Source: Nitrospiria bacterium (lineage in GTDB: Bacteria > Nitrospirota > Nitrospiria > Nitrospirales > NS-4). Taken from it: a stretch of 64,000 nucleotides of DNA. The position numbers and the translations under genes are program-made. This document shows positions 12,614 through 62,149 of this stretch, piece by piece. Under the pieces are notes generated by a model. That model ran no database searches. It saw only the letters and a program-made list of their open reading frames with translations, and was not told the origin of the DNA. Every line of letters starts with the position of its first letter. Positions within the stretch are counted from its first letter, which is position 1. The stretch is taken from positions 17,635 through 81,634 of the forward strand of contig JBGPTH010000004.1 in assembly GCA_041490525.1 (NCBI GenBank), given 5' to 3'.

Positions 12614-12629
12614 CGCAAAGGTAGTACCA
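12614..12629 (-). promoter_or_regulatory. Sigma-54 promoter TGGTACTACCTTTGCG
   Basis: GG-N10-GC spacing is exact. Followed by a 33-nt leader containing GGAAGGAGG and ATG 12579. Confidence 0.55.
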
Positions 12630-12712
12630 GGAGCCCTCCGAGGGCGGGCAAAAAATTTCAGACCTGAATCATACGGTTATTGGTAGAGCACGTCGAGCGG
12701 TGAGGCATTGGT

Positions 12713-12734
12713 GACGCCAATTGCCCCAGACCCG
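12713..12734. promoter_or_regulatory. Candidate upstream activator element (copy A)
   Basis: GACGCCAATTGCCCCAGACCCG. The 13-mer TGCCCCAGACCCG is identical to 53649-53661, and GCCAATTGCCCCA is identical to 62245-62257. Lies 93 nt upstream of the -24 element. Confidence 0.4.
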
Positions 12735-12884
12735 TTGAAAGATTTCGTCCCGAAATTCCTCAGCGGACACCGACGCCGGTTCAGATTAAATCAGGCGTGG
12801 GGCATACGGGCGGGATTGTACCAGAATTCAGGTGCCCGTTGTGTTGACACGGCAAGAAGTGAAGTCTAGTCTTAGCTTCCTGGA

Positions 12885-13235
12885 TTGCTGGGTAGAGAAA
12901 AGGTGTCTGGAACCGTCTTTCAAATGATCTTTATCATTGTGCTTTGGTTCTCTTTCTTCGGACTTGCGCCTACTCAGGCGGCTGATCGGGGCTCGGCGTT
13001 GCAGTCGCCGGAACAACCCCCAGGCCCTTCCCAAACGTACCGCTCAATCACGCTCCGCATGACCAAGGAAGAAGTCCACCGATTGATGGGAAAGCCGTCC
13101 CGGTCAACCGATACGCTGTGGCTCTATACGTATGCGGATGGGACGACCGTGGAGGTCATCTTCTCGAAGAAGAGGCGCGTGACCCAGGTTGTCCATTATA
13201 AGAAGCAGCAGCAGTTCCCTCCGAAAGGGAAGTAA
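12885..13235 (+). CDS. Small secreted protein, SmpA/OmlA (BamE)-like (hypothetical)
   Basis: 116-aa ORF with a hydrophobic N-terminus (MIFIIVLWFSFFGLAPTQAA if started at 12924) and MTKEEVHRLMGKP. TTGACA-N17-TAGTCT lies about 40 nt upstream. Confidence 0.5.
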   Translation: MLGREKVSGTVFQMIFIIVLWFSFFGLAPTQAADRGSALQSPEQPPGPSQTYRSITLRMTKEEVHRLMGKPSRSTDTLWLYTYADGTTVEVIFSKKRRVTQVVHYKKQQQFPPKGK

Positions 13236-13251
13236 CAGAAACCGCATTGGA

Positions 13252-14064
13252 TCAGAATCCGATCGACAGCCCGACAGTGCCGAACACCGCAGATCGGTCG
13301 GAAGGCCCGGCGAACTCGGTTCCTAGGCCCCCATCCAATACGATTCGCGAGCTGAACTGATGGCGAAGTCCCACCTCGATTCCGGTGGGATTGCGGCCCC
13401 CGCTGAGGTCCGACTGGCGGGTGAACACGTCCGCGATCAGCGTTTCTCGGAACCGCATGGGATATCCTAGCGGATAACTCACGCCCAAAGCCAGGCGGTA
13501 CAGTCCATCGCGCTCTCCTCCTCGAGCGGAGCCCACGACCGTGTACTCCACATTAAGATGCGTCCGCCAACGGCCGAATGAGCGCGTCAGAATGCCGGCC
13601 AGCGTGCCATCCACGCCCTTTGAGCGAACGCCGGTCGGAAACTCCAGGTCGAGCTTCACGGCCAGCGCCGGCAGACTGAGCGTCTCCGTGTTGAGGTTGT
13701 ACAGGACGCCGACACGCACGTCTCCGGACTTCTCGGCACCTTCCACCGAAGTCGGCTCCGTAACCAGGTCTCCGCCGATCTCAAGCTGCGTGTTATAGAA
13801 CGCTCCGTACAGCACTTGCGGCTGGAACACGAACCGGGTTCTCCCCTGCCGCCGGTCCACGAATCGGGCACCACCCTCCAGGCCAAACTCGCCCTTTGCT
13901 AAAGGATACGCATCCTCGATCCGGAGCGGGCGGTTCTTGTCGAGGTTGTCGTGATCAAGCGCCCAGGCTGGCGGGAGGCCCAGACAGAGAAGGAAGGTTA
14001 CAATACTGAGCAGGCAGCCTCGCATCAGGCATGCCAGCCTTTCATTGTTTCTCATGCCGGTCAT
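13252..14064 (-). CDS. Putative outer-membrane beta-barrel protein
   Basis: 270-aa ORF with a signal-like MRGCLLSIVTFLLCLGLPPAWA, alternating beta-strand pattern and terminal Phe (LSIGF). Start is uncertain (14064, 14055 or 14025). Confidence 0.5.
   Translation of the reverse strand: MTGMRNNERLACLMRGCLLSIVTFLLCLGLPPAWALDHDNLDKNRPLRIEDAYPLAKGEFGLEGGARFVDRRQGRTRFVFQPQVLYGAFYNTQLEIGGDLVTEPTSVEGAEKSGDVRVGVLYNLNTETLSLPALAVKLDLEFPTGVRSKGVDGTLAGILTRSFGRWRTHLNVEYTVVGSARGGERDGLYRLALGVSYPLGYPMRFRETLIADVFTRQSDLSGGRNPTGIEVGLRHQFSSRIVLDGGLGTEFAGPSDRSAVFGTVGLSIGF
14021..14036 (-). promoter_or_regulatory. Sigma-54-like 16-mer TGGCATGCCTGATGCG (anomalous position)
   Basis: Matches the promoters at 24840-24855 and 43003-43018 at 14 of 16 positions each, but overlaps candidate start ATG 14025 of the beta-barrel ORF. 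Confidence 0.3.
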
Positions 14065-15010
14065 GCTTCATTTCTTGTTTCTGCCCGATCATCGGATTCG
14101 TGGCGTCGGCGCTCTCGAGATAGTAGCTGTCCAGGATCCGGTAAATTTCCGCCCGCTTGGCTTCCCGGGTGGGGAATAGATCACTGACCAAAATGTCGCT
14201 GATGTTGTCGTGGAGCATGTGGAGGTTATCGAAGATGTTCGCGATCTCGGGATAGCGGGCCGCGAACTTCGGGCTCAATTCGGCCGTCAGGGGCATGAAG
14301 GTCCATTCCACCGGCGGCCGCTGGAGATATCCATGGTACATCATTAAGATAGGCCGCACGACCGTCCGCTTGGCTGCCAGGTCCGGAGCGGCTTGCAGCA
14401 CGTCATACACGGCGACTTGGAGGTAGTGATAGGCCCAGATGGTGGCGTTGAAGAGCGGGAACTTCCACCGGAAGGCCTTCGAATACGGAAACTGGTCGAG
14501 GCGGCGGTGGTCCAGTCGTTGAGCGGTAATCGCGTAGGGGCTCTGCCGGTAGAAGGCCAGGGCCTCCTGGAGCGCGGCGTTTTTGTCGGTGATGATGGCG
14601 GAGACGTAGATGTCGTACGTGGCGCGGTGCAGTGCATGCGCTTCATCGAAGGCGTTCTGCGCGCGCCAGGCCAGCTTCATGTAGGTGGGGGCGATCGCCT
14701 CTTCGTTCGGCGGAAGGACCGGTCTCGACGCAATGAACCGCAGGGTCTGCCCGCGCGCCTCCTCTTCGACGGCCGGGACGCTCTTGGCGCCGGTGACCAG
14801 CAAAGTCTCATAAAGATGCGAATGGCCGAAGTCCACGCCGTTGAACTCGATGTCGAGCTCGGGAAGATCGTCGCGAAGCGCGAAGTTCCAGACGGCCCGG
14901 TCATAAAACCGCTTGTCGCGCGGCTCGAATTGGGCTGGCACGATCGAAGCGGAAAGCGCCGCAAGAGCCAGCAGGAATATCAGAATAGCAAGCAAGCGAT
15001 CAGGCCGCAT
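14042..15010 (-). CDS. Secreted hypothetical protein
   Basis: 322-aa ORF with signal peptide MRPDRLLAILIFLLALAALSASIVPA. No family recognised. Confidence 0.5.
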   Translation of the reverse strand: MRPDRLLAILIFLLALAALSASIVPAQFEPRDKRFYDRAVWNFALRDDLPELDIEFNGVDFGHSHLYETLLVTGAKSVPAVEEEARGQTLRFIASRPVLPPNEEAIAPTYMKLAWRAQNAFDEAHALHRATYDIYVSAIITDKNAALQEALAFYRQSPYAITAQRLDHRRLDQFPYSKAFRWKFPLFNATIWAYHYLQVAVYDVLQAAPDLAAKRTVVRPILMMYHGYLQRPPVEWTFMPLTAELSPKFAARYPEIANIFDNLHMLHDNISDILVSDLFPTREAKRAEIYRILDSYYLESADATNPMIGQKQEMKHDRHEKQ

Positions 15011-15111
15011 GGCGCCTCACCTCTTTGGATTCCTGGACTGGATACCCTTACGTCTGTGGCTGACTGAACTGCCTCACTGAGGAAGGGAGTGCCGCCAGAC
15101 GGACAAAGACC

Positions 15112-15996
15112 CTACCGCCTGAACACCAGCACCGAACACGGGGCGTATTTGATGACGCCGTCGGAGACGCTGCCCATGAGGAATCGGGTGGTGCCGGAGA
15201 GCCCGCGGGAGCCGACGACGGCCAGATCGGCGCGCTCGGCCTCGGCCAGTTTCACGATCTCGTGGCTCGGATGTCCGTGCACAACCGCGGTGCTCACCTG
15301 AAAGCCAGCCTTTTCGATGCGCTCGGCAGCCTGCTTCGCGATCGTATGGGCCTCTTCGATGAACGGGGCCCGCACCCGGTCGAGAAGAGCCCCCTCCAGC
15401 GGCGGTTCCATCGAGGCCTCGATCGGGAGCGGAGGGACGACCGAAACGACCGTCAGGTGGGCCGCTTCCGGCAAGGGCATCTGAAGGAGAAACTCGAGGC
15501 CGGCCCGCGCGTCCTTGGAAGCATCCATGCCCACGACGATCCGTCTGAGCACCGGCACCCGCTTCTTGACCAGCAGCACCGGACAGCCGGCGTGCACCAC
15601 GACCTTGCGCGACACGCTGCCCAGCAGGAAGGCCCGGACATCCGTCAGCCCCCGCGAGCCCATCACGATCATGTCGGCTTTCAGCTTCGCCGCCGTCCGC
15701 ACGATGCTCTCGGCCGGGTGCCCGCGCACGAGGCGGCTGTCCACGGTTCCCCAAACAGGAGAGAGCGCGGCCTTCTCGCGCGCCAACACGGTCCGGCCGG
15801 TCTCCTCCGCCAGGCCCAGCGCCTGCCTCATGGCGTCCTCGGCCCCCTCCCCCGCTCCCCGGTGGGGCTTGTACTTGGCGGTGTCCACCATGTGCACGAG
15901 CACCAGCGCCGACCCCCGAGGAAAGGGCCAGCGCCGCAGCGCCTCCAGCGCCCACTTCGAATGCTTCGATCCGTCCACCGCGCAGAGGACCTTCAT
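15112..15996 (-). CDS. Universal stress protein, tandem Usp domains
   Basis: MKVLCAVDGSKHS... plus a second domain VVGMDASKDA... Both have G-x2-G-x9-G(S/T)V ATP-type motifs. ATG 15996 is preceded by AGGAGA. The track start is 16023. Confidence 0.85.
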   Translation of the reverse strand: MKVLCAVDGSKHSKWALEALRRWPFPRGSALVLVHMVDTAKYKPHRGAGEGAEDAMRQALGLAEETGRTVLAREKAALSPVWGTVDSRLVRGHPAESIVRTAAKLKADMIVMGSRGLTDVRAFLLGSVSRKVVVHAGCPVLLVKKRVPVLRRIVVGMDASKDARAGLEFLLQMPLPEAAHLTVVSVVPPLPIEASMEPPLEGALLDRVRAPFIEEAHTIAKQAAERIEKAGFQVSTAVVHGHPSHEIVKLAEAERADLAVVGSRGLSGTTRFLMGSVSDGVIKYAPCSVLVFRR

Positions 15997-16015
15997 GCCG
16001 GATGCTCTCCTGCCC

Positions 16016-17044: not shown

Positions 17045-17129
17045 TCGGGAATGCCAGGCTCGCGCGAGGCGTCCCTTTCCATCGCAGGCTCAACAAGGGT
17101 AGAATACCGGAATTCTCGGAGCCTGGATC

Positions 17130-17783: not shown

Positions 17784-17833
17784 ACGCTCTTCGAGGGTTG
17801 CGACGGAGAGAAGAGACGAGGGGTTCCAGTTAA

Positions 17834-19642
<1,809 letters not shown>

Positions 19643-19666
19643 CGAGAGCCGTCCGCAAGACCGCCC

Positions 19667-20209
19667 TCAGGAGATCACCGGCAGGGGGTTGACGGTCGTC
19701 GCCTGGGGCCCTTTTTCTCCCGGTTCGAGATTGAAGACCACTTCCACGCCGTCCTCCAGGGCCTCAAACGTCAGGCCGTGCAGCGCGTTCTTATGAAAGT
19801 ACACCTCCCCGCCCCCTTCCCTCAGGATGAACCCGTACCCCTCCTGAGGGAACAGCTTGCAGATCACCCCGCGCAGCGGCGGAACCGGCGGGGTCCGCAC
19901 CTCGGTCGTAGCGCGCTTCCCGCGGAACTTTTGCAACTCGATGTCCACCGACAGGAAGGCGGCGCGGATGGCCTCCTCGAAGGTCTTTTCCTCTTTCCTG
20001 GCCGTGATCGTGTGCCGGCCGGGCAGCGTCACCACCACCAGCGCTTCCGCCACCCGCCGGTCCTTCTTATGGTGCAGATTCTTCGTCAGGGTCACCCGCC
20101 CGTGGAGCAGGTCGTCATGGCCCGCCTGCAGGTCGGCCATCCTTTCCTCGACCTCCGTCTTCCATCTCGGCGTCATCGCCACATTCCGGCTCTCAATATG
20201 CAGTTCCAT
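19667..20209 (-). CDS. HPF/RaiA ribosome-hibernation domain fused to a cold-shock domain
   Basis: The N-terminal ~100 aa are RaiA-like (MELHIESRNVAMTPRWKTEVEERM...). The C-terminus is CSD-like (GYGFILREGGGEVYFHKNAL...GEKGPQATTV). Confidence 0.7.
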   Translation of the reverse strand: MELHIESRNVAMTPRWKTEVEERMADLQAGHDDLLHGRVTLTKNLHHKKDRRVAEALVVVTLPGRHTITARKEEKTFEEAIRAAFLSVDIELQKFRGKRATTEVRTPPVPPLRGVICKLFPQEGYGFILREGGGEVYFHKNALHGLTFEALEDGVEVVFNLEPGEKGPQATTVNPLPVIS

Positions 20210-24839: not shown

Positions 24840-24855
24840 TGCATCACGCATGCCA
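24840..24855 (-). promoter_or_regulatory. Sigma-54 promoter TGGCATGCGTGATGCA
   Basis: Exact GG-N10-GC spacing. Only 14 nt separate it from ATG 24825, implying a near-leaderless transcript. Confidence 0.55.
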
Positions 24856-25003
24856 TCTAATGGTTGCGGCTCATCCGGACCGATCAGGAGAGGGAGCACA
24901 AGGGAAATTCCCCCGCTTCCGTCAGCGAAGACAAGAAATCCCACGGGCATCACAACGAGAAAATGCCCTAAAATGCCACAACGGAAAGAATGAAAGTGTG
25001 GAG

Positions 25004-25714: not shown

Positions 25715-25715
25715 C

Positions 25716-26780
25716 TCACCGGTCGGCGGGCCGAAAGCCGCTGCCGGTCACCGACAGAACGTGATCTTCGATCCGCACCTCCGCCCCCAGGAATTCCTTG
25801 GCGAGCCAGGCGCTGGTCTCCACATGCTCGGTGACGGAGGGAATTCGGAAGGAGCTCGCGCCTTCCGCCAGCGCGGCAAAGGGAATGATCTGGTCGGCGG
25901 CGAACCGGTCCAGCGTCGCTCCCGTCCGCAAGTCTTCCAGAAGGTGGTGGGCCACAAAGCGCCCGATGGCTTCAGACCGCCGTCCCCGCGCGCCTGCGCG
26001 GTCTGCGCCCAGGCGCGCCTTCCCGCTCAAATCGACGAACGCCGCCAGCGCCGCTCCCGGTTGCGCGGCGGTGGTGTCATATCGGACTTCAAAGTCGGCC
26101 CGATACCCGGCTCCCGCCAGCACTTCGTTCGCCGCCTCGGCCATGCGATGACTCACCCTCGCCTCCTCGAGCTGGGAGGCCAGCGCGATCCCCCAGACCC
26201 GTTCCACGGTTCCAGGCTCTTCCAGAACCAGGCTTTGCAGCCCCCGAAGGACGGGTTTCACGCTCAAGGAAAGAATGCCGCCGCCCTGCGGGACATAGCC
26301 GGGGCGCTTCATCTCCACCTCGGCCTCAAGACCCATTCTGACCAGCAGCGGCAGCATCACGTGTTGCAGGTAAAACACCGACGGCGCAAAGTCCTGAAAG
26401 AGCCCTCCCCGGAGTTCGGCTTGAATCGGTGAGGGCGCAAAGGCCAGCACCGGAAGAAGCGCCAAGCCCAGCATCGTGGTGGAGCCGGCGGAGCCGATAT
26501 CCCAGTGGTAATGCCGGCCCGCCTGCACGGACCCGGGACGGAAGATCAGTTCCTGCGAACCCTTGGCGAGCCCTTCGACCGTCCCGTCCACCAGTTGGCG
26601 AATGGCTTCGACGACCAGGACATGTTGCGCACGGAGGCCCGGCTTGGGGCGCCGAACGCGGGCCTTCACGATGTGGACCGCCCGGCCCGTCAGTGCGGAG
26701 AACATCACCGCCTGGCGGACAATGGTGCCGCTGCCGGAATACCGCGATCCGTCAATCTCGAGCATCGCTATCGTTACCAC
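25716..26780 (-). CDS. rtcA: RNA 3-prime-terminal phosphate cyclase
   Basis: MLEIDGSRYSGSGTIVRQAVMFSALTGRAVHIVKARVRRPKPGLRAQHV is a typical RtcA N-terminus, and the length fits. Confidence 0.8.
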   Translation of the reverse strand: MVTIAMLEIDGSRYSGSGTIVRQAVMFSALTGRAVHIVKARVRRPKPGLRAQHVLVVEAIRQLVDGTVEGLAKGSQELIFRPGSVQAGRHYHWDIGSAGSTTMLGLALLPVLAFAPSPIQAELRGGLFQDFAPSVFYLQHVMLPLLVRMGLEAEVEMKRPGYVPQGGGILSLSVKPVLRGLQSLVLEEPGTVERVWGIALASQLEEARVSHRMAEAANEVLAGAGYRADFEVRYDTTAAQPGAALAAFVDLSGKARLGADRAGARGRRSEAIGRFVAHHLLEDLRTGATLDRFAADQIIPFAALAEGASSFRIPSVTEHVETSAWLAKEFLGAEVRIEDHVLSVTGSGFRPADR

Positions 26781-27994: not shown

Positions 27995-28176
27995 TCAGGA
28001 TTCACCCCCTTTCTATCTCAAAAGCGCCTCTACCATGCCCAAAACTGCCCAGGAAAGCAACACTCGGGAAACAAAAATTGGTGACAAATGCGACAGGCCC
28101 GATCCATGTTCGGTTTCGCATTCTCGTAGGGGTGTGTTTTCTGGCCGGAAATCCCGCCGCCGTTCACTGGTCTCGC

Positions 28177-28192
28177 TGGTATCGACCTTGCA
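28177..28192 (+). promoter_or_regulatory. Sigma-54 promoter TGGTATCGACCTTGCA
   Basis: Exact spacing, 38 nt before ATG 28230, with a GAGGG Shine-Dalgarno in the leader. Confidence 0.55.
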
Positions 28193-28229: not shown

Positions 28230-28955
28230 ATGCGCGGCAAAGAAGAAGTCCTCAAGGAGGTTCGAGCGGCGTTTGAGCACGAGCCGCGGATAAAACTGCA
28301 CCGGTGTCCGGTCCACATGGACTTTACCGACGGCGTCCTGACCTTGGAAGGGGAACTGGAGAATATCGCCGCCAAGAAGCTGGCCATGGAACTGGCGATC
28401 GCCGTTCCCGGTGTCAGCGGGATCGTGGACCGCCTTCGGACGGCTCCGGCCGAGCGCATGGGCGATGGGGCCGTTCTCGATGCCGTGTGCGACGCGCTCC
28501 TTGAGGAACACGCCCTGCAGAACTGCACGATCAAAAGAAAGGCCAAGGGGAAGATGACCGTTGTCAGCGAGTCCCGCGCGGAGCCTCACGGCGTGATCGA
28601 GGTTTCCGTCAAGGACGGGGTCGTGCTCCTGGACGACCATGTCCCCAGCCTGTCCCAGAAGCGCCTGGCCGGAGTCCTAGCCTGGTGGGTCCCCGGAAGC
28701 CGCGACGTCATCAACGGCATGGAGGTGGTTCCCCCCGAGGAGGACAACGACGACGAGGTGACCGAGGCGGTACGGATGGTGTTGGAGAAGAACCGCTTCC
28801 TCAATGCGGATCAAATCCAGGTGACCACCCGGAACTTCGTGGTCACCTTGGAGGGAGTCGTCCGCACGGAGGCCCAGAAGGAGATGGCCGAATTCGATGC
28901 CTGGTACGTCTTTGCCGTGGACAAGGTCGTCAATAACCTCACGGTGCTGGAATAA
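28230..28955 (+). CDS. BON-domain protein (three BON repeats)
   Basis: Three repeats of the DGV(L/V)TLEG...A......VPGV..V.N.L pattern. Confidence 0.8.
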   Translation: MRGKEEVLKEVRAAFEHEPRIKLHRCPVHMDFTDGVLTLEGELENIAAKKLAMELAIAVPGVSGIVDRLRTAPAERMGDGAVLDAVCDALLEEHALQNCTIKRKAKGKMTVVSESRAEPHGVIEVSVKDGVVLLDDHVPSLSQKRLAGVLAWWVPGSRDVINGMEVVPPEEDNDDEVTEAVRMVLEKNRFLNADQIQVTTRNFVVTLEGVVRTEAQKEMAEFDAWYVFAVDKVVNNLTVLE

Positions 28956-31597: not shown

Positions 31598-31613
31598 AGC
31601 AAGGGCAATACCA
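31598..31613 (-). promoter_or_regulatory. Sigma-54 promoter TGGTATTGCCCTTGCT
   Basis: Exact spacing, 53 nt before ATG 31544. Divergent partner of the promoter at 31866-31881. Confidence 0.55.
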
Positions 31614-31865
31614 TCGGGGCCGGGAGATGGAACCGGTGGATTCCGTGGAAATCCAGGATATTGCGGCCGGAGGCCCGAATCTCAGGAAGGGGCAGGGGGA
31701 AATCCTGCTACAATCGCACCCTCCTTGATGTAGTGAAAAGCCACAGCGCCGGAGAGCCCGACCCTATCCCATCCCACGAAGCTCCGGACCAATCTCCAGA
31801 GGAACCTCCCGCCAGGTAACGTGATCTTTCAGGGACAGCACGCCAGAGGGCGACCGCGAGAGCCA

Positions 31866-31881
31866 TGGCATCGGTTTTGCG
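31866..31881 (+). promoter_or_regulatory. Sigma-54 promoter TGGCATCGGTTTTGCG
   Basis: Exact spacing, 92 nt before ATG 31974, with a GAGGAGGAG Shine-Dalgarno. Confidence 0.6.
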
Positions 31882-34757: not shown

Positions 34758-35219
34758 TTACTGAGCCGCCCGCTTGCCTGCGCTCAGAGGAGTCGGGTTC
34801 GTCCCTTCTCCGGAGGATTCCCCCAGGGCCTCCTCCACCATCCGGAGGAGCGCCGCCTCTTTATCCTGCGTGCAAAGGATCAGACAATGATAGGCCCCCG
34901 GACTGATGGCACGGGCGTTTCTCCCGATCGGCCAAGGAAACGGGTTCACGATGACCGGGATCTCCGGATACTTTTCGCGTAGCACAGACGTCAACTGCCT
35001 GCTTCCCATCCCGCGCAGGTGCTCTCCGATCACCACCGCATCAAACCGGACCTGCCGCAGGTATTGTAACCCCTGGTGAGACGAGGATACGGCCCGAACC
35101 TTGTATGGGCCCTCGGCGAGCGCGCGCTTCGTCCATTGACGCCGGAACTCATAATCGTCCACCACAAGGACATAGAAGGGGCTTTCCCTGCTTGAATGAT
35201 CGATCGGTGTCGGGACCAT
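34758..35219 (-). CDS. Stand-alone receiver-like domain, apparently lacking the phospho-acceptor Asp
   Basis: FYVLVVDDYEF...FDAVVIGEHLRGMG has Gly where the acceptor Asp is expected. I trimmed the track ORF (to 35552) because sigma-54 promoters at 35245-35260 and 35500-35515 lie inside its 5-prime part. Confidence 0.5.
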   Translation of the reverse strand: MVPTPIDHSSRESPFYVLVVDDYEFRRQWTKRALAEGPYKVRAVSSSHQGLQYLRQVRFDAVVIGEHLRGMGSRQLTSVLREKYPEIPVIVNPFPWPIGRNARAISPGAYHCLILCTQDKEAALLRMVEEALGESSGEGTNPTPLSAGKRAAQ

Positions 35220-35244: not shown

Positions 35245-35260
35245 GGCAAAAGAAATGCCA
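35245..35260 (-). promoter_or_regulatory. Sigma-54 promoter TGGCATTTCTTTTGCC
   Basis: Exact spacing. Its first 15 nt are identical to the promoter at 37051-37066. Confidence 0.6.
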
Positions 35261-35499
35261 TCCATCCATCACAGTCGGGAGCACCGAAGAGGCCGATCTG
35301 CCAACTTGTTCCCGGGCAATTAGCGGGGATGGCCTCCAAGGGAGAGAAATTATGATGCGCTTTTCCCCAGGCAGGCCAGCTAGAATGTACTGAAACGCCA
35401 CAGAACGATTCGAAGCCGAGATCCCAGAGAATTAGCAAGAGAGGCGGCCCGACGGGATCTTCCTTTGACCACCTGCCTTTCTCGTCAGCCCCGATTCCA

Positions 35500-35515
35500 T
35501 GGCATTCCCCTTGCG
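35500..35515 (+). promoter_or_regulatory. Sigma-54 promoter TGGCATTCCCCTTGCG
   Basis: Exact spacing, 56 nt before ATG 35572, with a GGAAGGAGG Shine-Dalgarno. Confidence 0.6.
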
Positions 35516-35571: not shown

Positions 35572-36000
35572 ATGAAAGTCCCTCAATTGAGTATGAAGGC
35601 GCGTGAGGTCATGAACCCGAGAGTCATGGCGGCGACCAGGCGGGCCGTCGGGCGGGATCTGGCGCTCCAGGTGCTTTCCGGCCAGTACAGCGGGCTTCCC
35701 GTGGTGGACGAGCGCGACGGGCAGGTGATCGGGATGGTGACCGAGTTTGATTTGCTGAAGGCGGTCCTGGAAGGAAAAGATTTGAACTCGATCAAGGCGG
35801 AAGACATCATGAACCCCGTCCCTTTATGTGTTAATGAAGACACCTCGGTTGAGGAGATCCTCAAGACGATGATCGACAACAACGTGATCCGGGTCCCGGT
35901 TGTCCGCAAAGGGAAGCTCGTGGGCGTGGTCGCCCGGGCCGACCTGCTGAGCCATCTGATCGACCCGGAATTCGTCCGATTCTACGGAGGATTGGCGTAG
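35572..36000 (+). CDS. CBS-domain pair protein
   Basis: Two CBS motifs (VMNPRVMAA...GLPVVDE; IMNPVPLCV...RVPVVRKGKLVGVV). Confidence 0.85.
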   Translation: MKVPQLSMKAREVMNPRVMAATRRAVGRDLALQVLSGQYSGLPVVDERDGQVIGMVTEFDLLKAVLEGKDLNSIKAEDIMNPVPLCVNEDTSVEEILKTMIDNNVIRVPVVRKGKLVGVVARADLLSHLIDPEFVRFYGGLA

Positions 36001-36004: not shown

Positions 36005-36515
36005 TCAATCTCCGTGTAGCATTGGGGCAAATCGCACCAGATTGGGTTTCTTGATTAAGGTACCCGAACGAATGGAAAAGCGAGTCCGCATGGAACGCGG
36101 GATGGCTCCGACCCCGCATTCGTCGTCAAGAGTCTCGGCCACAACGATGACATCCGGGTCTTTAAAATCAACCGAGGGAGTCTGACCCCGCACCATCAGG
36201 CGCTCACGAAGGGCTCCGTCCAGTTCTTGCTCCACATGCTGACTGTGAATCTCCCCCGCATGCCCGCGCCGCGAACCCGAAAGTTCGGTCGATCGGCACC
36301 AGCTTGGACAACGGATCGAGAAATCCGGGTTCCTCTTCTTCGTGCCGCCGCAGTTCCTCAAAAAAAGCTTCAGGCTCCTTCACCCGCCCGACCAGGACTC
36401 CCAGAAACCGGGTCCGTCGAAAATTCCCGAAGCGCCGCAACAGTCCCGCCAGACGGCGTTGTTCCATGTCCTTCGCCGTGGCGAGCACATTCCAGTTTTC
36501 AAGGCCCTTTACCAT
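36005..36515 (-). pseudogene. THUMP-like domain gene split by an apparent +1 frameshift near 36272
   Basis: Frame A reads MVKGLENWNVLATAKD...LSKLVPIDRTFGF up to ~36273. Frame B continues RRGHAGEIHSQHVEQELDGALRERL...VDFKDPDVIVVAETLDDECGVGAI. The span is 511 nt, which is 170 codons plus 1 nt. Confidence 0.4.
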
Positions 36516-37050: not shown

Positions 37051-37066
37051 CGCAAAAGAAATGCCA
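37051..37066 (-). promoter_or_regulatory. Sigma-54 promoter TGGCATTTCTTTTGCG
   Basis: Exact spacing, located in the 74-nt gap after the Mut7-C gene. Confidence 0.6.
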
Positions 37067-38053: not shown

Positions 38054-38109
38054 ACGATTCTATCTGCCCCCTTCAATCAAAATCCCAACACATCCAGGAG
38101 CCTCATGTG

Positions 38110-38139
38110 TTTGGGGCTGTCCCTTCGGACAGCCCCAAA
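38110..38139. other. 13-bp perfect stem-loop TTTGGGGCTGTCC-CTTC-GGACAGCCCCAAA
   Basis: Lies 11 nt after the stop of the 48-aa ORF and 57 nt before the PDZ gene start. No clean U-run on either strand. Confidence 0.6.
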
Positions 38140-38149
38140 TCACTCTCTT

Positions 38150-38296
38150 TTAGGCCGCTTTCTTCTGGGGCTTGCCGGTGAAGTTCTGCACGACCGGAAC
38201 GGTCATGGGCTCGAAGGCCTTCAGGCTCGCTCCCAGCATCAACACACCCGCCACCAGTCCCGAGATAGCCAGAAACCCATCAATGACGGAATCCAT
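38150..38296 (-). CDS. 48-aa single-TM mini-protein (hypothetical)
   Basis: Hand translation: MDSVIDGFLAISGLVAGVLMLGASLKAFEPMTVPVVQNFTGKPQKKAA. A GAGGAGG Shine-Dalgarno lies 9 nt upstream of the ATG. Confidence 0.45.
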   Translation of the reverse strand: MDSVIDGFLAISGLVAGVLMLGASLKAFEPMTVPVVQNFTGKPQKKAA

Positions 38297-38652
38297 CTTC
38301 TATTCACCTCCTCATTCGCGTTGGGTAAGTAGTCTATAGAATTGAGCTGCTTGATAAGATAGCAGCCCCACATTAGGAGCAGATTAACAGCACATTAGAA
38401 TTGTCTTATTTCCGCGGAACTGAGCCGGAAAATCAGTTGAATTCGAAGAGGGTGGAGGGGGTCGTTCAGAGCTCTTTTGTTTACGGCGGAGATCGCGGAA
38501 AGATTTTAGGTTTCCCGGTCAGCCGGGCCTACACACCATCTCTGCACTTGACCCCCCTTTTGCTCCTACTGTGTCTCTTGTGGCCCCTCAACCCTCTATT
38601 TATAAAGTAGGTCCTGATCTCAGGTAGTCAAGACGCCTCCAGATCCCCTCCC

Positions 38653-38680
38653 TTGACCGAGGCCGCTGAGTGGCTAATAT
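38653..38680 (+). promoter_or_regulatory. Sigma-70-type promoter TTGACC-N16-TAATAT
   Basis: -35 at 38653-38658 and -10 at 38675-38680, in an AT-rich patch. Predicted TSS is about 38688. Confidence 0.4.
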
Positions 38681-38687
38681 ATTAATA

Positions 38688-39015
38688 GGGGGTGAGAGAA
38701 GGCCTGATGCAGGACGGCATCCTGATTTTGACTCGCTCTTGTGCCGAAAGGTGTCGGCCGTTGGTCCTGTTTCTGAGGAACAGGGCGCAAAGTGGGTTTC
38801 GGCCGGATGCCGCAAGGGTTGAGGTTCTGTGCCGGAAGCGGGATCGCTTCCGATGGTGCGTGCCTCGAACTCGATGCCAGTAGGCATGGCCGTAAATGCG
38901 AGCCCGATGAAGCCGAGGCACGGGGTGGCCTGAAAGAGCAGGAGGGTTACCCGGATCGGTTCCGGCTGGTAGACAGGACTGAGGCTCACACAAGAGCGAG
39001 CCGTTTTAATGTTTA
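38688..39015 (+). ncRNA. Candidate structured RNA (unclassified), about 0.3 kb; strand tentative
   Basis: ORF-free and visibly lower in G+C. A 12-bp closing helix (38732-38743 with 38989-39000) encloses at least five hairpins (details in findings). The 3-prime strand is followed by CCGTTTTAATGTTT. Confidence 0.35.
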
Positions 39016-39052
39016 GGCCCTGTTTTCGTCCCCCCTTATGGCGAGCCCCAAG

Positions 39053-39061
39053 TGTTATAAT
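39053..39061 (+). promoter_or_regulatory. Extended -10 element TGTTATAAT
   Basis: 12 nt before ATG 39074 with no Shine-Dalgarno between. Confidence 0.35.
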
Positions 39062-39073
39062 GATTTTTAAGCT

Positions 39074-40171
39074 ATGACGACCTCCAAGCTCAATACCGTC
39101 GTGCCCACGAAGTACTGGCACGCACTCGAAGACGGGCGCGTCCAGTGCGATCTCTGCCCCCGGTTCTGCAAGCTCCAGGAGGGGCAGCGGGGGATGTGTT
39201 TCGTGCGCGCCTGTGAAAACGGCCAGGTCGTTCTGACCACCTACGGGCGGTCCAGCGGCTTCTGCGTCGACCCGATCGAGAAAAAGCCGCTGAACCATTT
39301 TTTGCCGGGCACCCCGGTGCTGTCCTTCGGGACGGCCGGCTGCAACCTGGCGTGCAAGTTTTGCCAGAACTGGGACATCAGCAAATCCCGCGAGATTGAT
39401 ACGCTCGCCGATGAAGCCTCCCCCGAAGTGATCGCACGGGCGGCCCGCGATCTGGGGTGCCGGAGCGTGGCGTTTATTTACAATGATCCGGTCATCTTCC
39501 ACGAGTACGCGATCGACGTCGCCCAGGCCTGCCGTGAAGTCGGGGTGAAATCGGTGGCCGTGACGGCCGGGTACGTGTGCGAGGCACCGCGCGAGGAGTT
39601 TTACCGGTACATGGACGCCGCCAATGTGGACCTCAAGGGGTTCACCGAGCGATTTTACAAAGAGATGACCGCCAGCCACCTGCAAAATGTGCTGGATACG
39701 CTGGTATACCTCAAGCATCACACGAAGGTCTGGTTCGAGGTGACCACCCTGCTGATTCCCGGGGAAAACGACTCGGAACGGGAACTGGAGGAATTGACCC
39801 AGTGGATGGCGGAGCACCTCGGGCCGGATGTACCCCTGCACTTCACCGCCTTCCACCCTGACTGGAAAATGCTGGACAAGCCTCCGACCCCACCCGCCAC
39901 CCTCACCCTGGCGCGCCGCATCGCGATGAACAACGGGCTCCGCTACGTCTATACCGGCAACGTCCATGACGAGGAAGGGGGCAGCACCTACTGCCCGCAC
40001 TGCGGGAAGAAGCTCATCGGCCGCGACTGGTACGTGTTGACCGAGTGGAATCTGACAGCGGACGGCGGGTGCACGTTCTGCGGCGCGGAGTGCCCGGGGG
40101 TGTTCGAGGCCTCGCCCGGAAGCTGGGGGGCAAAGCGCCTGCCGGTCCGCCTCAGAGACTTCGCAAACTAA
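39074..40171 (+). CDS. AmmeMemoRadiSam-type radical SAM enzyme (AmrS-like), second copy
   Basis: CDLCPRFC...GMCFVR, DPIEKKPLNHFLPG and CNLACKFCQNW motifs. Paralog of 20280-21377. Confidence 0.8.
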   Translation: MTTSKLNTVVPTKYWHALEDGRVQCDLCPRFCKLQEGQRGMCFVRACENGQVVLTTYGRSSGFCVDPIEKKPLNHFLPGTPVLSFGTAGCNLACKFCQNWDISKSREIDTLADEASPEVIARAARDLGCRSVAFIYNDPVIFHEYAIDVAQACREVGVKSVAVTAGYVCEAPREEFYRYMDAANVDLKGFTERFYKEMTASHLQNVLDTLVYLKHHTKVWFEVTTLLIPGENDSERELEELTQWMAEHLGPDVPLHFTAFHPDWKMLDKPPTPPATLTLARRIAMNNGLRYVYTGNVHDEEGGSTYCPHCGKKLIGRDWYVLTEWNLTADGGCTFCGAECPGVFEASPGSWGAKRLPVRLRDFAN

Positions 40172-43002: not shown

Positions 43003-43018
43003 TGCATCATGCATGCCA
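43003..43018 (-). promoter_or_regulatory. Sigma-54 promoter TGGCATGCATGATGCA
   Basis: Exact spacing, 28 nt before ATG 42974, with a GGAGGAGG Shine-Dalgarno. Confidence 0.6.
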
Positions 43019-43217
43019 GCAAGAAGCGCCCGCAACTCGCGCTGCGACCGCACCTCTCAACCGCTGCCTGTGGCATCTCGCGCCAGTGCCGAAAGGCTGT
43101 GGCGTGGTCTTTCTCCCCATCCCCTGGTGGATTCTTACGGTCGCGCAGGCATCGCCGGCGGAATGATCAGACACGCACGCGGTAGTGGTCCCCGCCTCCG
43201 CTCTTCAAGTCCCCGCG

Positions 43218-53531: not shown

Positions 53532-53547
53532 CGCAAGAGAAATGCCA
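53532..53547 (-). promoter_or_regulatory. Sigma-54 promoter TGGCATTTCTCTTGCG
   Basis: Exact spacing, 69 nt before ATG 53462. Confidence 0.65.
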
Positions 53548-53639
53548 CCACGTTCCCCCGCCGCCGGCGCCGGAACCATCAAGAAATGAGGCGGTTAGAG
53601 GAAGGTCTATGGGGATAGCCGGAAGGGGGCGATCACGTT

Positions 53640-53661
53640 GGCGCACCCTGCCCCAGACCCG
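53640..53661. promoter_or_regulatory. Candidate upstream activator element (copy H)
   Basis: GGCGCACCCTGCCCCAGACCCG. The 13-mer TGCCCCAGACCCG is identical to 12722-12734. Lies 102 nt upstream of the -24 element. Confidence 0.4.
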
Positions 53662-53699
53662 CTTCCTGGACCGTCCTGAAATGCCACAGCCCTCCGCCC

Positions 53700-57690: not shown

Positions 57691-58660
57691 GCAGCATCTC
57701 TTGCACGGTCTTCACGATGGCGGCTGCCTGGGGCAACGCCGCGTCCTCCAGATGCTTCGGGTAGGGCATCGGCACTTCGGCGCTGCACACGCGCGCCACG
57801 GGGGCATCGAGGTCGTAGAAGGCGCCTTCCATGATCCGCGCGCTGATCTCCGCCGCAAAGCTGCCCGTGCGCCAGGCCTCGTCCACGATCACGGCCCGAT
57901 GGGTCTTCCCCACGGAGGCCAGGATCGTCGGCGTATCCAACGGCCGGAGCACGCGGAGATCGATGACCTCGGCCTCGATCCCGGAGGAGGCAAGCTGGTC
58001 GGCGGCTTCCAGCGTCTTCCACAGCGACCCCCCGAACGTGATCAGGGTGACATCGGTGCCCGGCCGGCGCACCGCCGCCGTTTTGATGTCCACGGGGCCG
58101 GCATTGTCATCCAGTTCCCCTTCCATGGGATAGAGCATGGCGTGCTCAAAGATGAAGACCGGGTCCGGCTCGCGGAGCGCGGTCAGCAGCATCCCCTTCG
58201 CGTCGGCCAGCGTCGCGGGGGTGACCACCTTGATTCCGGGAATGTGCGCATACCAGCCCTCCAGGCTGTGGGAATGCTGCGCCGCGACCTGGCGCCCCGC
58301 GCCCGTGGCCATGCGGACGATGAGCGGCACGCTGAACTGGCCGCCGGACATGTGCCGGATGGCGGCCGCATTGTTGACGATTTGGTCCAGGGCCAGCAGG
58401 CTGAAGTTCACCGTCATCACCTCGACGATCGGCCGCATCCCGCCGAGCGCCGCGCCGATGCCGGCCCCGACGAAGGTGGACTCCGACAGCGGCGTGTCGC
58501 GCACCCGCTCGGGCCCGAACTCTTCCAGGAGCCCGTGGCTGCACGCGTAGCTGCCGCCGTAGCGGCCGACGTCCTCCCCCATGAGGAAGACGCGCGGGTC
58601 GCTCGTGAGCGCCTCCCGAAGCCCGGCCCGCACCGCCTCGCGGTACTTCATCTTGATCAT
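57683..58660 (-). CDS. 2-oxoacid (pyruvate/acetoin-type) dehydrogenase E1 beta subunit
   Basis: [30 protein letters not shown] is a typical E1-beta N-terminus. Confidence 0.85.
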
Positions 58661-59646
58661 GGCGTGTACACGTCCCTGGTCAGCTCCTCGACGGGCTCCC
58701 AGGGGCCGGCTTCCGCGAAGGCGACCGCGTCCGCGATCTCCGCGTCCACGGCCGCTTCGATCGTGGCCCGATCCGCATCCTTGAGGAGGCCGTCCTCGCG
58801 AAGCCGCTCTTCAAACGTCACGATCGGATCGCGCTTCTTCCACTGCTCGACCTCCTCCTTGTTCCGGTAGAGTTCCGGGTCGTACATCGAATGGGCGCGG
58901 AACCGGTAGGTCCGGAATTCAATCAGGTACGGCCGCATCTCCCCTCGGACGATCTCTACGGCCCGTCGCGTGGCGTCCTCGACCGCGAGCACATCCATGC
59001 CGTCCACCGCCTCGCCCGGCACGCCGTCGCCTTTCGCCTTGAGCGTGATGTCGGTCTGGGCCTGGTGCCGGGCCAGGGCCGTCCCCATCGCGTACAGGTT
59101 GTTCTCGCAGAGAAAGAGCACGGGCAGCTTCCAGAGTGCGGCGAGATTGAGCGATTCGTGAAACTCCCCCTCCGCCACCGCGCCGTCGCCGAAGAAGCAG
59201 GCGGTCACGCGCGCCCGCCCCTGGAGCTTGTCGGCGAGGGCCAGGCCGACCGCGACCGGCAGGCCCCCGCCCACGATCGCCAGGCCGCCGTAAAAGCGCC
59301 GCGCGGCGTCGAAGAAATGCATGGACCCCCCGCGCCCGCGGCTGCAGCCGTTGGCCTTCCCGTACAGTTCCGCCATCAGCGGCCCTGCCGGCGTCCCCCG
59401 CACGAGCGAGTGCCCGTGCTCGCGATAGGTAGCGACGATGGCGTCATCCGGCGTGAGCGCCTGGATCGCGCCGACCGCCACGGCTTCTTCGCCTATGTAT
59501 AAATGTAGGAACCCGCGGATCTTCCCGGCGCTGTACAACTCCACCGACTTCTCCTCGAAGCGGCGGATGCGCAACATCTCATGAAACAGCTTGATCCCAT
59601 GCGCGCGATCCAGAGGCGGCTGGCCCGCTTCCACGAAGCAGTCCAT
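58657..59646 (-). CDS. 2-oxoacid dehydrogenase E1 alpha subunit (TPP-binding)
   Basis: LRIRRFEEK...[11 protein letters not shown] and GDGA..EG.FHE.LN.A TPP motif. Confidence 0.85.
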
Positions 59647-61440
59647 TCAACTTCCCTCCAACGTCGACGTGTCCCCCTCGGGCAGCCCAAGTTCACGGGC
59701 CTTGAGCAACCGCCGCATGATCTTCCCGCTCCGGGTCCTGGGCAGGGTCGCCAGGAACTCGATCTCCTTCGGCGCGACCACCGCGCCGAGCCTGGTCCGG
59801 GCAAATCCCAACAACTCGCGCCGCAGCTCGGGGGTCGCCTCGTACCCGTCCTTGAGCGAGACGAACGCCTTGACCACCTCCAGCGCCACCGGGTCGGGCT
59901 TTCCGATCACGCCAGCCTCGGCCACCGCCTTGTGCTCCATCAACACGCTCTCGACCTCAAACGGCCCGATCAGATGCCCGGAGGTCTTGATCACGTCGTC
60001 CGTGCGCCCGACGAACCAGAAGTACCCGTCCTTGTCCCGCTTGGCGAGATCGCCGGTGAGATACCAGCCGCCGAGGAAGCATTTCTGGTAGCGCTCCGGC
60101 TCGTTCCAGTAGCCCCGGAACATGGACGGCCATCCGGGCTTGAGCGCCAGCTCGCCCTGGACGTCGGCCTCCACGATTTCTTCGACCCCGCCGTCGGCGG
60201 TCTTCCGCACGACCGCCGCCTCAATTCCCGGCAGGGGCCGGCCCATCGACCCGGGCCGGATATCCATGGCGGCGTAGTTGGCGATCATGATCCCCCCCGT
60301 CTCGGTCTGCCACCAATTATCGTGGAACGGGAGCCCGAATGCCCGCTGGCCCCAAACGACGGCTTCGGGGTTGAGGGGCTCGCCGACGCTGGCAAGGAAG
60401 CGGAGCGTGCGGAGGTCGTATTTATGGATGGGGTCGAGGCCTGTCTTCATCATCATGCGGATGGCGGTCGGCGCGGTGTACCAGACGGAGACGCGTTGGT
60501 CCTGGAGGATGCGGTACCAGCGCTCGGCGTCGAAGTCGGCTTCATCCACAATGCTGGTGATCCCGTTCGTCAAGGGGGCGATGACGCCGTACGAGGTGCC
60601 GGTCACCCAGCCCGGATCGGCCGTGCACCAGAAGACATCGTCCTTGTGCAGGTCCAGAGCGAGCTTGCCCGTGATGTGGTGGGCAACGACTGCCTGGTGG
60701 ACGTGGACTGCGCCTTTGGGCGTGCCGGTGGTCCCGCTGGTGAAGTGCAGCAGCGCCCTGTCTTCCGGAGCGGTCGGCCCGATCGTGAACCGGTCGGACG
60801 CTTGCTCCATCAGCCGAAGATAGTCGCGCGTGCCGGCCACATCGGTCGGCTGGTGATCGTCCCCGACGAGGAGGACATGCTCAAGGTCGGGCAAGGAGGC
60901 GCGCAGCCCCTCCACCTTGCGATGGTAGAGCGACTCCGTCGTAACGAGGACCTTGGCCTGGCCGATCGTCATCCGTGCGCGGATGGGCTCGGGCCCGAAG
61001 GCCGAGAACAGGGGGCAGAAGACGCTCCGGTGTTTCAGCGTCCCGAGGGCGGCGATATAGAGCTCGGGAATCCGGCCCGCCAGGGCATACACCCGATCCC
61101 CGGGGGCCACGCCCAGCCCGTGCAGCACGTTGGCAAAGCGGTTCGTGAGGTCCCGAAGCGAGGCATAGGTGTAGTCCCGGACCTCGCCGGTCTTGCCAAG
61201 CCACCGCAGCGCGAGGTGGTCCCGGCGGGCGTGCGCCGCGTGACGATCAACCGCCTCATGGGCGATATTGAGCCCCTTTTCGCCCGGAAGGCCGTCCAGT
61301 TCGCGGCGGGCGCGGTCCCAGGAAAAGGCCGCGCGGACCTGGCCGTAGTCGTGGAGATTCGGGATGACCGCCCCCCAGTCCCGCCGTGATTTTATGATCG
61401 TCTCCCAGCCCATCGTGTGAGCTGTCTCCGGATGAATCAT
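59647..61440 (-). CDS. AMP-forming acetyl-CoA synthetase-like ligase (AcsA type)
   Basis: 597 aa with an AMP-binding signature ([12 protein letters not shown]), a C-terminal SGKIMRR and an AcsA-like N-terminus ([10 protein letters not shown]). Its stop abuts the E1-alpha start with no gap. Confidence 0.8.
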
Positions 61441-62105
61441 CCGCGTGCGGGCTTGTCCCGCCCGCGCAAGGCCGCAGCGGCCTCCTTCAGGTATCGGACG
61501 ACGGTCGCATCATCCACCTGCCTGAAATCCGCATAGTGATTGCCGACGGCGAAGAACGGGTCCGGCGTCTCGAGGACGACCACCTCATCCACGGTCTTTC
61601 CGACCAGGCGAATCGTATCAGGGGGGGCCACCGGGATCCCCGCCACCAGGCGTTTCACGTGAAGCTGCCGGAGCGCCTCGGCCGACGCCAGGAACGTGGC
61701 CCCCGTGGCGATCCCGTCATCGACCAGCAACACCGTTCGTGCAGTCAGGTCCGGCAAGGGTCGCCCGCCCCGGTACAGGACTTGCCGCCTGACGATCTCT
61801 TCCTGTAAGGCCCGCCGGGCTTGTTCCACATACTCGGCGGGAATCATGTACGCCTCGATCGCGTCCCGATTGAGATGGATCGACCCGGTCTCGGCCACCG
61901 CGCCGAGGGCGAATTCCGGATTGTCCGGAGCCCCCAGTTTGCGCGTGATGAATACATCCAGAGGGAGGCCCAGGGCCAGGCTCAGCGTATAGCCTACCGC
62001 CACCCCGCCCCGGGGCAAGGCCAGGATGAGGGCCGTCGGATCATTCCGATAAGCGCTCAACCGCTTTGCCAGCAGCCGGCCTGCTTCTTCGCGATCTTGA
62101 AACAT
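61437..62105 (-). CDS. Phosphoribosyltransferase-family protein
   Basis: [16 protein letters not shown]...ILALPRGGV and [17 protein letters not shown] motif. ATG 62105 is chosen because the track start at 62138 lies inside the sigma-54 promoter. Confidence 0.75.
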
Positions 62106-62133
62106 CGGCGCTCCGCGTTCAGGTTCCTGTTTG

Positions 62134-62149
62134 AGCAAGGCCAGTGCCA
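62134..62149 (-). promoter_or_regulatory. Sigma-54 promoter TGGCACTGGCCTTGCT
   Basis: The best consensus match in the window (TGGCAC-N5-TTGCT), 28 nt before ATG 62105. Confidence 0.7.

Follow-up and report, generated by a model that had tools for sequence, protein, structure and literature searches.

Eleven candidate sigma-54 promoters, ten of them with a common family of upstream boxes, in a stress-gene island of a Nitrospirota bacterium

We analysed a 64,000-nucleotide stretch of DNA (the window) from a Nitrospiria bacterium of the phylum Nitrospirota (assembly GCA_041490525.1, contig JBGPTH010000004.1, positions 17,635 to 81,634). It carries an island of genes for universal stress proteins (Usp), the small heat shock protein Hsp20 and a hibernation-promoting factor (HPF), in which eleven intergenic sites resemble the -24/-12 promoters of sigma-54 (RpoN). 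An earlier reading, made from the letters alone and called here the sequence-only reading, had proposed that these sites tie the island into one apparent regulon. We find support for the promoter part of this proposal in the consensus and spacing of the sites, their co-oriented intergenic placement, the conservation of the hsp20 promoter, the boxes that lie upstream, and a footprint of conservation in a closer relative. Judged by these sequence features, the eleven sites are very probably genuine sigma-54 promoters, and we think it somewhat more probable than its opposite that one activator controls most of them. Sigma-54 promoters with a single activator form the best explanation of the data as a whole, and we give this explanation a probability of about 0.6.

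All eleven 16-mers were found where, and on the strand on which, the sequence-only reading had placed them; each fits TGGYAY-N5-WTGC with an exact GG-N10-GC spacing (Table 1). The pattern TGGYAYNNNNNWTGC occurs 12 times in the window; dinucleotide-preserving shuffles averaged 0.59 matches with no more than three in any of them, and none of the 100 shuffles reached 12. Eleven of the 12 matches are intergenic, in a window of which 12.9% is intergenic according to our curated gene map, and all eleven are directed at the gene that follows next. The remaining match, TGGCATGCCTGATGC, is on the minus strand at 14036-14022 and had not been listed before. It lies within the signal-peptide coding region of an open reading frame (ORF, 13252-14064) and belongs to the same GATGC sub-family as the sites at 24855 and 43018. 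It is unlikely to act as a promoter and may be a chance match or an intragenic sigma-54 binding site; because no usable start codon follows it, it is best treated as a non-promoter.

The same eleven sites were recovered by a position weight matrix that was trained on 19 sites from other genomes only. When both strands were ranked with this matrix, all of them (scores of 12.0-16.8 bits) came within the top 13 positions of the window and took the first nine places without exception; no further strong -24/-12 sites were identified within the window. The pattern was also absent from the flanking DNA, 10 kb on the left side and 5.6 kb on the right. A simple consensus scan detected no sigma-70-like consensus in the seven gaps between 24 and 44 kb that contain sigma-54 sites.

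The placement of the sites in gaps shortly before start codons was borne out, with distances from the GC to the start codon of 15-93 nt (previously given as 14-92 nt). Transcription would be expected to start about 12 nt after the GC. The strong Shine-Dalgarno sequences that were said to follow are clear at most sites but weak or absent downstream of the promoters at 24855, 31613, 35260 and 62149. Both divergent pairs are real, with -24 elements 252 nt apart in the pair 31613/31866 and 239 nt apart in the pair 35260/35500. The promoter cores fall into sub-families, and those of 35260 and 37066 are identical at 15/15 positions. The suggestion that these sub-families arose by promoter duplication did not hold up: an all-against-all BLAST of the promoter regions returned just motifs of 13-19 nt, and we reject duplication as their origin because the similarity between promoters stops at the motif edges.

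Table 1. Predicted promoters of the island and the boxes upstream of them. Promoters are named after the first nucleotide of the motif; scores are half-site matrix scores.
Feature	Position	Strand	Sequence	Genes headed or remarks
Promoter 12629	12614..12629	(-)	TGGTACTACCTTTGCG	BCAM0308-family gene 12034-12579 (NF040826), cupredoxin gene
Box pair of 12629	12710..12762	(-)	box 1 TGAGGAATTTCGGGACGAA (12762-12744); box 2 TGGGGCAATTGGCGTCACC (12728-12710)	starts 34 nt apart, 99-133 nt before TGG; nhmmer E = 0.016; scores 16.6, 18.3
Promoter 24855	24840..24855	(-)	TGGCATGCGTGATGCA	hydrolase, HhH, SAM synthetase, LigD-PE, radical SAM, HPF-CSD (24825 down to 19667; Pfam)
Box of 24855	24962..24980	(-)	TGTGGCATTTTAGGGCATT	125 nt before promoter; score 14.3
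Promoter 28177	28177..28192	(+)	TGGTATCGACCTTGCA	BON-domain gene 28230-28955
Box of 28177	28077..28095	(-)	TGTCGCATTTGTCACCAAT	82-100 nt before promoter; score 12.2
Promoter 31613	31598..31613	(-)	TGGTATTGCCCTTGCT	bacterial PH protein, S1 protease, 82-aa protein, CheR
Box common to divergent 31613(-) and 31866(+)	31727..31745	(-)	TGTGGCTTTTCACTACATC	score 11.4
Promoter 31866	31866..31881	(+)	TGGCATCGGTTTTGCG	second BCAM0308-family gene, DksA/TraR zinc-finger gene
Promoter 35260	35245..35260	(-)	TGGCATTTCTTTTGCC	stand-alone receiver, GYD, Usp, 103-aa protein
Box pair common to divergent 35260(-) and 35500(+)	35351..35402	(-)	box 1 TGTGGCGTTTCAGTACATT (35402-35384); box 2 TGGGGAAAAGCGCATCATA (35369-35351)	starts 33 nt apart; scores 15.5, 8.5
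Promoter 35500	35500..35515	(+)	TGGCATTCCCCTTGCG	CBS-pair gene 35572-36000
Promoter 37066	37051..37066	(-)	TGGCATTTCTTTTGCG	PEBP and THUMP-like genes; no upstream box
Promoter 43018	43003..43018	(-)	TGGCATGCATGATGCA	tandem Usp gene; probably also amino-acid kinase fragment, HtrA
Box of 43018	43069..43087	(+)	TGTGGCATCTCGCGCCAGT	51-69 nt before promoter; score 15.8
Promoter 53547	53532..53547	(-)	TGGCATTTCTCTTGCG	Hsp20, three Usp, DUF2934, P-type ATPase; possibly extending to MFP, MacB, VIT1, cytochrome c; orthologous promoters in Nitrospiraceae
Box pair of 53547	53637..53688	(-)	box 1 TGTGGCATTTCAGGACGGT (53688-53670); box 2 TGGGGCAGGGTGCGCCAAC (53655-53637)	starts 33 nt apart
Promoter 62149	62134..62149	(-)	TGGCACTGGCCTTGCT	PRTase, acs, pyruvate dehydrogenase E1 alpha, E1 beta and E2, ACP, P-type ATPase
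Box pair of 62149	62239..62291	(-)	box 1 TGGGGATTTTCGGGGCGCT (62291-62273); box 2 TGGGGCAATTGGCAACAGG (62257-62239)	starts 34 nt apart
Candidate twelfth unit	4021..4184	(-)	weak -24/-12 GGGAACGTCCCTTGCA (4036-4021)	boxes 4132-4150 and 4166-4184

To see how far the promoters are conserved, we compared the window with 80 homologous loci from species-representative genomes, amounting to 1.18 Mb. The most syntenic and most similar loci come from metagenome-assembled genomes of Nitrospiraceae, with amino-acid identities of 79-83% for acs and 81-85% for E1 beta, a similarity from which the host would be an uncultured Nitrospirota bacterium near this family. By exact-protein look-ups the window also corresponds to a 130.6-kb JGI metagenome contig (3300052991, Ga0534154_0000052) and to contigs of the assembly GCA_041498675.1; four ORFs of the window had no such record, probably owing to the choice of start codon. 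An element TGGCA(C/T)-N6-(A/C/G)TGCA precedes the hsp20 ortholog in 14 of the 15 Nitrospiraceae loci with usable upstream sequence, including that of Ca. Nitrospira bockiana, at a chance expectation of about 0.02 per locus. It lies 75-150 nt upstream of the gene, or about 350-570 nt upstream where a small ORF intervenes. Across all 80 loci the pattern has 37 matches, many of which are these Nitrospiraceae hsp20 sites. The 59 non-Nitrospirota loci show it at background frequency only, as do the homologous islands of Thiobacillus, Sulfuricella and other Proteobacteria, and the sigma-54 wiring is therefore specific to the lineage.

The closer relative, represented by the ENA contig L089, has an hsp20 upstream region that is 87% identical to that of the window. 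The differences are unevenly spread: none falls within the 71 positions made up of the two boxes and of 31 nt (-30 to +1) that span the -24/-12 element, as opposed to 44 in the 197 positions elsewhere. The upstream regions of the PRTase and Usp genes are 97-99% identical in close relatives and were uninformative for such footprinting. In a more distant relative (L081, 67% protein identity), a stretch of 10.8 kb contains three intergenic sites of this kind. An X box (see below) lies 105 nt upstream of one of them, and two are divergent around a central box.

The small ORF that separates the sigma-54 promoter from hsp20 in several Nitrospiraceae encodes a conserved protein of 68-98 amino acids with the motif ...SPGC..E(D/E)...CPDL(S/T)W(D/N)QVF.E(L/V)DRLSR.G... 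It is found at about 7820-8080 in locus L024, about 14280-14480 in L020 and 8920-9216 in L088; tblastn detected no homolog of it in the window.

The promoters are coupled to a second sequence element. Ten of the eleven promoters are preceded, at a distance of 50-145 nt, by one or two 19-bp boxes with the consensus TGrGGnrTTTsGGnnCAG. In 13 promoters from other genomes we found a composite element 111-137 nt upstream of the -24 position, composed of a box X (TGAGGTAATTGGCAACAG), a gap of about 14 nt and a box Y (CTGaCCCGAAAcGCCCCAaC), where Y, read as its reverse complement, belongs to the same box family as X. A profile built from these foreign sequences only had its best window matches at 62258-62234 (E = 0.001), 12728-12766, 53673-53692 and 24964-24984, each upstream of one of the eleven promoters. 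Box 2 of promoter 62149 is the best match of the window to this Nitrospiraceae profile (half-site score of 24.8). With a matrix for the half-site, ten of the 13 top window matches were located 50-145 nt upstream of sigma-54 sites.

The geometry of the boxes is regular. Where they are paired, at promoters 12629, 35260, 53547 and 62149, their starts are 33-34 nt apart, or about three helical turns, and the proximal box starts 99-109 nt before the TGG. At each divergent pair, one central set of boxes serves both promoters. This enhancer-like layout is that of the classical NtrC and NifA systems, at the distance expected for an enhancer-binding protein, and the boxes are the predicted binding sites of such a protein. 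With one box family common to ten promoters, the island is probably activated as a whole by a single protein.

The box matrix also led to a candidate beyond the eleven, as it was the box pair at 4.1 kb that was located first. These two boxes, with starts 34 nt apart and scores of 20.1 and 10.5, lie 96-130 nt upstream of GGGAACGTCCCTTGCA, an element that keeps the GG-N10-GC spacing and has a perfect -12 but a poor, non-canonical -24 hexamer. The ATG of an OEP-MFP-RND metal-efflux operon follows 28 nt later; the part of the window to the left of 12.6 kb holds two Cus/Czc-type RND efflux operons. We tentatively regard this element as a putative twelfth member of the regulon.

Two further features of the intergenic DNA were observed. 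A high-scoring and nearly palindromic box, TGGGGCAAATCGCACCAGA at 36023-36041, lies between the convergent 3' ends of the CBS and THUMP-like genes and not upstream of a promoter. In addition, a conserved TAAC sequence occurs about 50 nt upstream of the TGG, between boxes and promoter, at 12629, 31866, 53547, 62149 and most of the foreign hsp20 promoters. A search for IHF sites between the boxes and the promoters gave just two one-mismatch matches, at 12615 and 62135. The TAAC sequence forms part of such an IHF-like site at two window promoters but does not generally fit the spacing of IHF sites.

The promoters could be sigma-54-dependent without forming one regulon, if two or more enhancer-binding proteins or extra regulators were to control subsets of them according to signal. 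We consider this unlikely, and the strongest of the alternatives. Possible subsets would be the promoters with X-type boxes (12629 and 62149), those with TGTGGC-type boxes (24855, 31613/31866, 35260/35500 and 53547) and those with GATGCA cores (24855 and 43018). The sub-families of promoter cores fit such a division, as do differences in box sequence (TGGGGCAATTGGC versus TGTGGCnTTTCAG), the promoter without a box at 37066, box distances that range from 51 to 142 nt, and the several sigma-54-dependent regulators that Nitrospira genomes are reported to use, at nxr loci and as fleR (PMC6606698). Against it, both box types co-occur at 12629, 62149 and 53547 and in the foreign hsp20 promoters. The two types are also related by sequence, X resembling the reverse complement of Y, and one half-site matrix recovers both.

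A very improbable alternative is that the 16-mers are operators of a dimeric transcription factor, of a form such as GCAT-N5-ATGC, and that the operons are transcribed from sigma-70- or ECF-type promoters, so that the likeness to -24/-12 elements would be coincidental. Three sites in the window (24855, 43018 and the intragenic 14036) and many of the foreign hsp20 sites are indeed GCAT-N5-ATGC palindromes and can be read as operators, the homologous island in Burkholderia uses an FNR-like operator (PMC3721108), and the rpoN gene of the host organism is deduced from its relatives. By contrast, a non-palindromic form with TTGC at -12 is found at eight of the eleven sites in the window, and the invariant GG has no symmetric partner. 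Among the 15 foreign hsp20 sites TGGCA and TGCA are invariant around a free spacer, with no covariation between positions 6 and 12; therefore a sigma-54 promoter fits these sites and a symmetric operator does not. A symmetric operator needs no orientation, whereas the sites are strictly co-oriented at their short distance from the start codons. The separate conserved element about 100-140 bp upstream and the lack of a sigma-70 consensus in the scanned gaps also speak against operators.

That the sites have no regulatory role and arose by chance, from biased composition or as copies of a repeat or mobile element can be dismissed in spite of their near-identical cores, as seen at 35260 and 37066, given the shuffling result and the co-oriented intergenic placement, a likeness that ends at the motif edges and so leaves no longer repeats, the retention of the motif across genomes without alignable flanking DNA, and its background frequency in non-Nitrospirota loci and absence from the window flanks.

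Several observations weigh against sigma-54 promoters under a single activator, in addition to the palindromic sites. Three concern the boxes: promoter 37066 has none, the box of 43018 is unusually near at 51 nt, and several box 2 sequences score poorly with the half-site matrix. Two concern the genes downstream: the annotated ATG at promoter 24855 is just 15 nt past the GC, which would leave a leader of about 4 nt, and the start codon of the receiver gene at promoter 35260 is ambiguous. Neither rpoN nor genes for enhancer-binding proteins were found in the window or its flanks (10 kb on the left, 5.6 kb on the right), and we infer the sigma-54 of the host organism from its relatives. In favour of sigma-54, Nitrospira genomes are reported to employ regulators that depend on it (PMC6606698). 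In Nitrospira marina, two annotated Hsp20 proteins were unchanged under low oxygen, with orthology to the hsp20 of the window not established (PMC8115632). Finally, some transcription units of the island have no motif, namely those of LOG-FtsH, GalT-Usp-unknown-OMP, YkuD-RtcA and PDZ-Mut7C, the radical SAM gene at 39074 and the ORF at 12885.

This last point limits how the regulon can be described. The claim that the gene set is wired almost entirely to sigma-54 stands for eleven operons but not for five to six transcription units, about a third of those in the island. Because these units include FtsH and one Usp operon, the island is not a single regulon in the strict sense. Similarly, the box family shared by ten of the eleven promoters argues for one regulon and the promoter at 37066 does not.

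We agree with the sequence-only reading that no enhancer-binding protein is encoded in the window: a search of its six frames found no GAFTGA or ESELFGH motif, and no sigma-54 activator domain is encoded. Such motifs occurred within 10 kb of just two of 87 homologous loci, so the activator is generally encoded elsewhere. That reading was likewise unaware of a described Usp/Hsp20/HPF set under sigma-54. In the literature outside subscription journals, we found no earlier description of a sigma-54-wired island of this kind or of the box motif, and sigma-54 regulators of Nitrospira were discussed only at nxr loci and for flagella.

We propose that sigma-54 holoenzyme would form a stable, transcriptionally silent closed complex at each of the eleven -24/-12 elements. 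An enhancer-binding protein of the AAA+ type, encoded outside the window and its immediate flanks, would assemble on the 19-bp boxes and be brought into contact with the holoenzyme by DNA looping. ATP hydrolysis by this activator would then drive open-complex formation, and the eleven operons, with about 45 genes, would be switched on together. The mechanism itself is the standard design of sigma-54 and an enhancer-binding protein; the predicted regulon is, however, large, previously undescribed and conserved across a lineage of ecological importance.

The gene annotations of the sequence-only reading proved correct in Pfam and NCBIfam searches. The island encodes six Usp, mostly in tandem, Hsp20, a fusion of HPF and a cold-shock domain, an FtsH-type protease and a LOG protein. 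It also encodes an archaeal-type SAM synthetase, a LigD phosphoesterase, RtcA, BON, CBS, PEBP and GYD proteins, a stand-alone receiver and a DksA/TraR protein, as well as acs with pyruvate dehydrogenase E1/E2 and ACP, and two P-type ATPases. This content points to ribosome hibernation, chaperoning and the use of acetate or pyruvate.

The gene content is also akin to that of the lxa locus of Burkholderia cenocepacia J2315. Both BCAM0308 paralogs of the window exceed the cut-off of the NCBIfam equivalog NF040826 (lxa_BCAM0308), with 218 and 140 bits against 100, and BCAM0308 is clustered with multiple Usp, Hsp20 and FtsH-type protease genes (Pfam), the combination by which we recognised an lxa-type island. 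The lxa locus spans BCAM0275a-BCAM0323, carries an FNR/Anr-like motif, TGA-N6-TCA, at 17 intergenic points, and responds to low oxygen with an induction of 2- to more than 240-fold (PMC3721108). Like the island described here, it is a multi-operon island of about 50 genes that combines the BCAM0308 equivalog, multiple Usp, alpha-crystallin/Hsp20, an FtsH-type protease, acetate and 2-oxoacid metabolism and cation ATPases, and in both islands one short motif is repeated across most intergenic gaps, tying the island into a regulon.

The two islands differ in their host, Burkholderia as opposed to Nitrospirota, and in the nature of this motif. The FNR/Anr-like inverted repeat of lxa implies an activator of the CRP/FNR family at sigma-70 promoters, whereas the motif here is itself a promoter, of the -24/-12 type, to which a distal enhancer belongs. 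The lxa motif was absent from the 160 nt upstream of every one of the eleven sites. A strict FNR box, TTGAY-N4-RTCAA, had 11 matches in the 1.18 Mb of homologous loci, two of them upstream of BCAM0308 homologs, and was enriched in no locus. A contrast between FNR elsewhere and sigma-54 here was thus not demonstrable for Thiobacillus or Sulfuricella; it is drawn from the Burkholderia paper.

We infer that the inducing signal may be oxygen or energy limitation, because lxa is induced by low oxygen, Usp rise in N. marina, and the gene content agrees. In N. marina under low oxygen, the proteins with the strongest increases include Usp, one of which rises about 263-fold, and Usp adjoin induced clusters (PMC8115632). 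A label of dormancy or hypoxia for the island is likewise tentative.

Regulons of the NtrC/glnAp2 and NifA type have tandem upstream activator sites, and in Klebsiella the divergent nifJ-nifH promoters share one upstream site. The island shares with these multi-operon systems the GG-N10-GC core, two sites about three helical turns apart and about 100-140 bp upstream, and shared central sites. It differs in the activator site, as TGrGGnrTTTsGGnnCAG corresponds neither to TGCACC-N5-GGTGCA, the site of NtrC, nor to TGT-N10-ACA, that of NifA, with some boxes reading TGT-N11-ACA. It differs also in its output, a Usp/Hsp20/HPF stress set instead of nitrogen metabolism, and in an activator that is not encoded nearby. 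The DosR (DevR) regulon of Mycobacterium tuberculosis, with about 48 hypoxia-induced genes, many of them Usp, and the alpha-crystallin hspX, has a similar output under one recurring motif, which is promoter-proximal. DosR is, however, a NarL-type response regulator at sigma-70-family promoters, with no sigma-54, ATP-dependent activator or distal enhancer. In the PspF-psp and RtcR-rtcBA systems of Enterobacteria, sigma-54 keeps genes for stress or repair strictly silent until an AAA+ activator acts. The use of sigma-54 for stress genes is common to these and the island; they are single operons with an adjacent activator gene, whereas the island has eleven operons and no adjacent activator, and its rtcA homolog has no sigma-54 site.

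Nitrite oxidisers of the Nitrospira type are key organisms in the nitrogen cycle and in wastewater treatment and routinely face fluctuations in oxygen. Our analysis offers a regulatory model with a promoter class, an enhancer motif that could serve as bait for the activator, and a predicted list of member genes. It can be described as a new regulon of sigma-54 and an enhancer-binding protein or, equally, as an lxa-type island rewired to another sigma factor. As homologous stress islands are wired to different transcription machinery in different phyla, they make a case for regulon rewiring.

More tentatively, and with rather less than even confidence, we suggest that Nitrospiraceae and their relatives hold a lineage-wide stress or dormancy regulon that is gated by sigma-54. 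A single enhancer-binding protein on paired TGrGGnrTTTsGGnnCAG boxes would be the master switch for surviving oxygen or energy deprivation, and the regulon would have been extended from an ancestral hsp20 operon to at least 11 operons in the lineage of the window. If this is true, the switch would let obligately aerobic nitrite oxidisers survive such deprivation, and it would be a third mechanistically distinct solution, with ATP hydrolysis and zero basal expression, beside DosR and the Anr/FNR control of lxa.

Some of the proteins encoded in the island deserve mention. Two unusual ones are found in the operon of promoter 24855, namely the HPF fused to a cold-shock domain (19667-20209, (-)) and the archaeal-type SAM synthetase (PF01941; 22033-23499, (-)). 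The best NCBIfam matches of the stand-alone receiver (34758-35219, (-)) are weak and are to the receivers of NtrC, GlrR and NtrX; it may serve as a phospho-sink or interact with the predicted activator as its partner. More speculatively, the receiver or the DksA/TraR protein could provide feedback. The RtcA homolog (25716-26780, (-)) is encoded without RtcR and without a sigma-54 site of its own. In E. coli, rtcBA is the classic operon of sigma-54 and RtcR.

A stretch of about 1 kb, at 38060-39070, is apparently non-coding and has a lower GC content. It contains a hairpin terminator with a 14-bp stem at 38109-38140. Rfam assigned no family to this stretch, and the Rfam and tRNA scans of the whole window were also empty. 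The scan of intergenic DNA between 24 and 44 kb gave a single good sigma-70-like consensus, which lies in this stretch at 38653-38680, upstream of a radical SAM gene.

Among close relatives the island is modular (L089 10199-11143; L091 2144-4596). One strain has an MgtE channel gene after the ACP gene, where the window has a P-type ATPase. In another, the Usp gene of promoter 43018 is followed by an insertion of DnaJ and an unknown gene, and the promoter region is still 99% identical.

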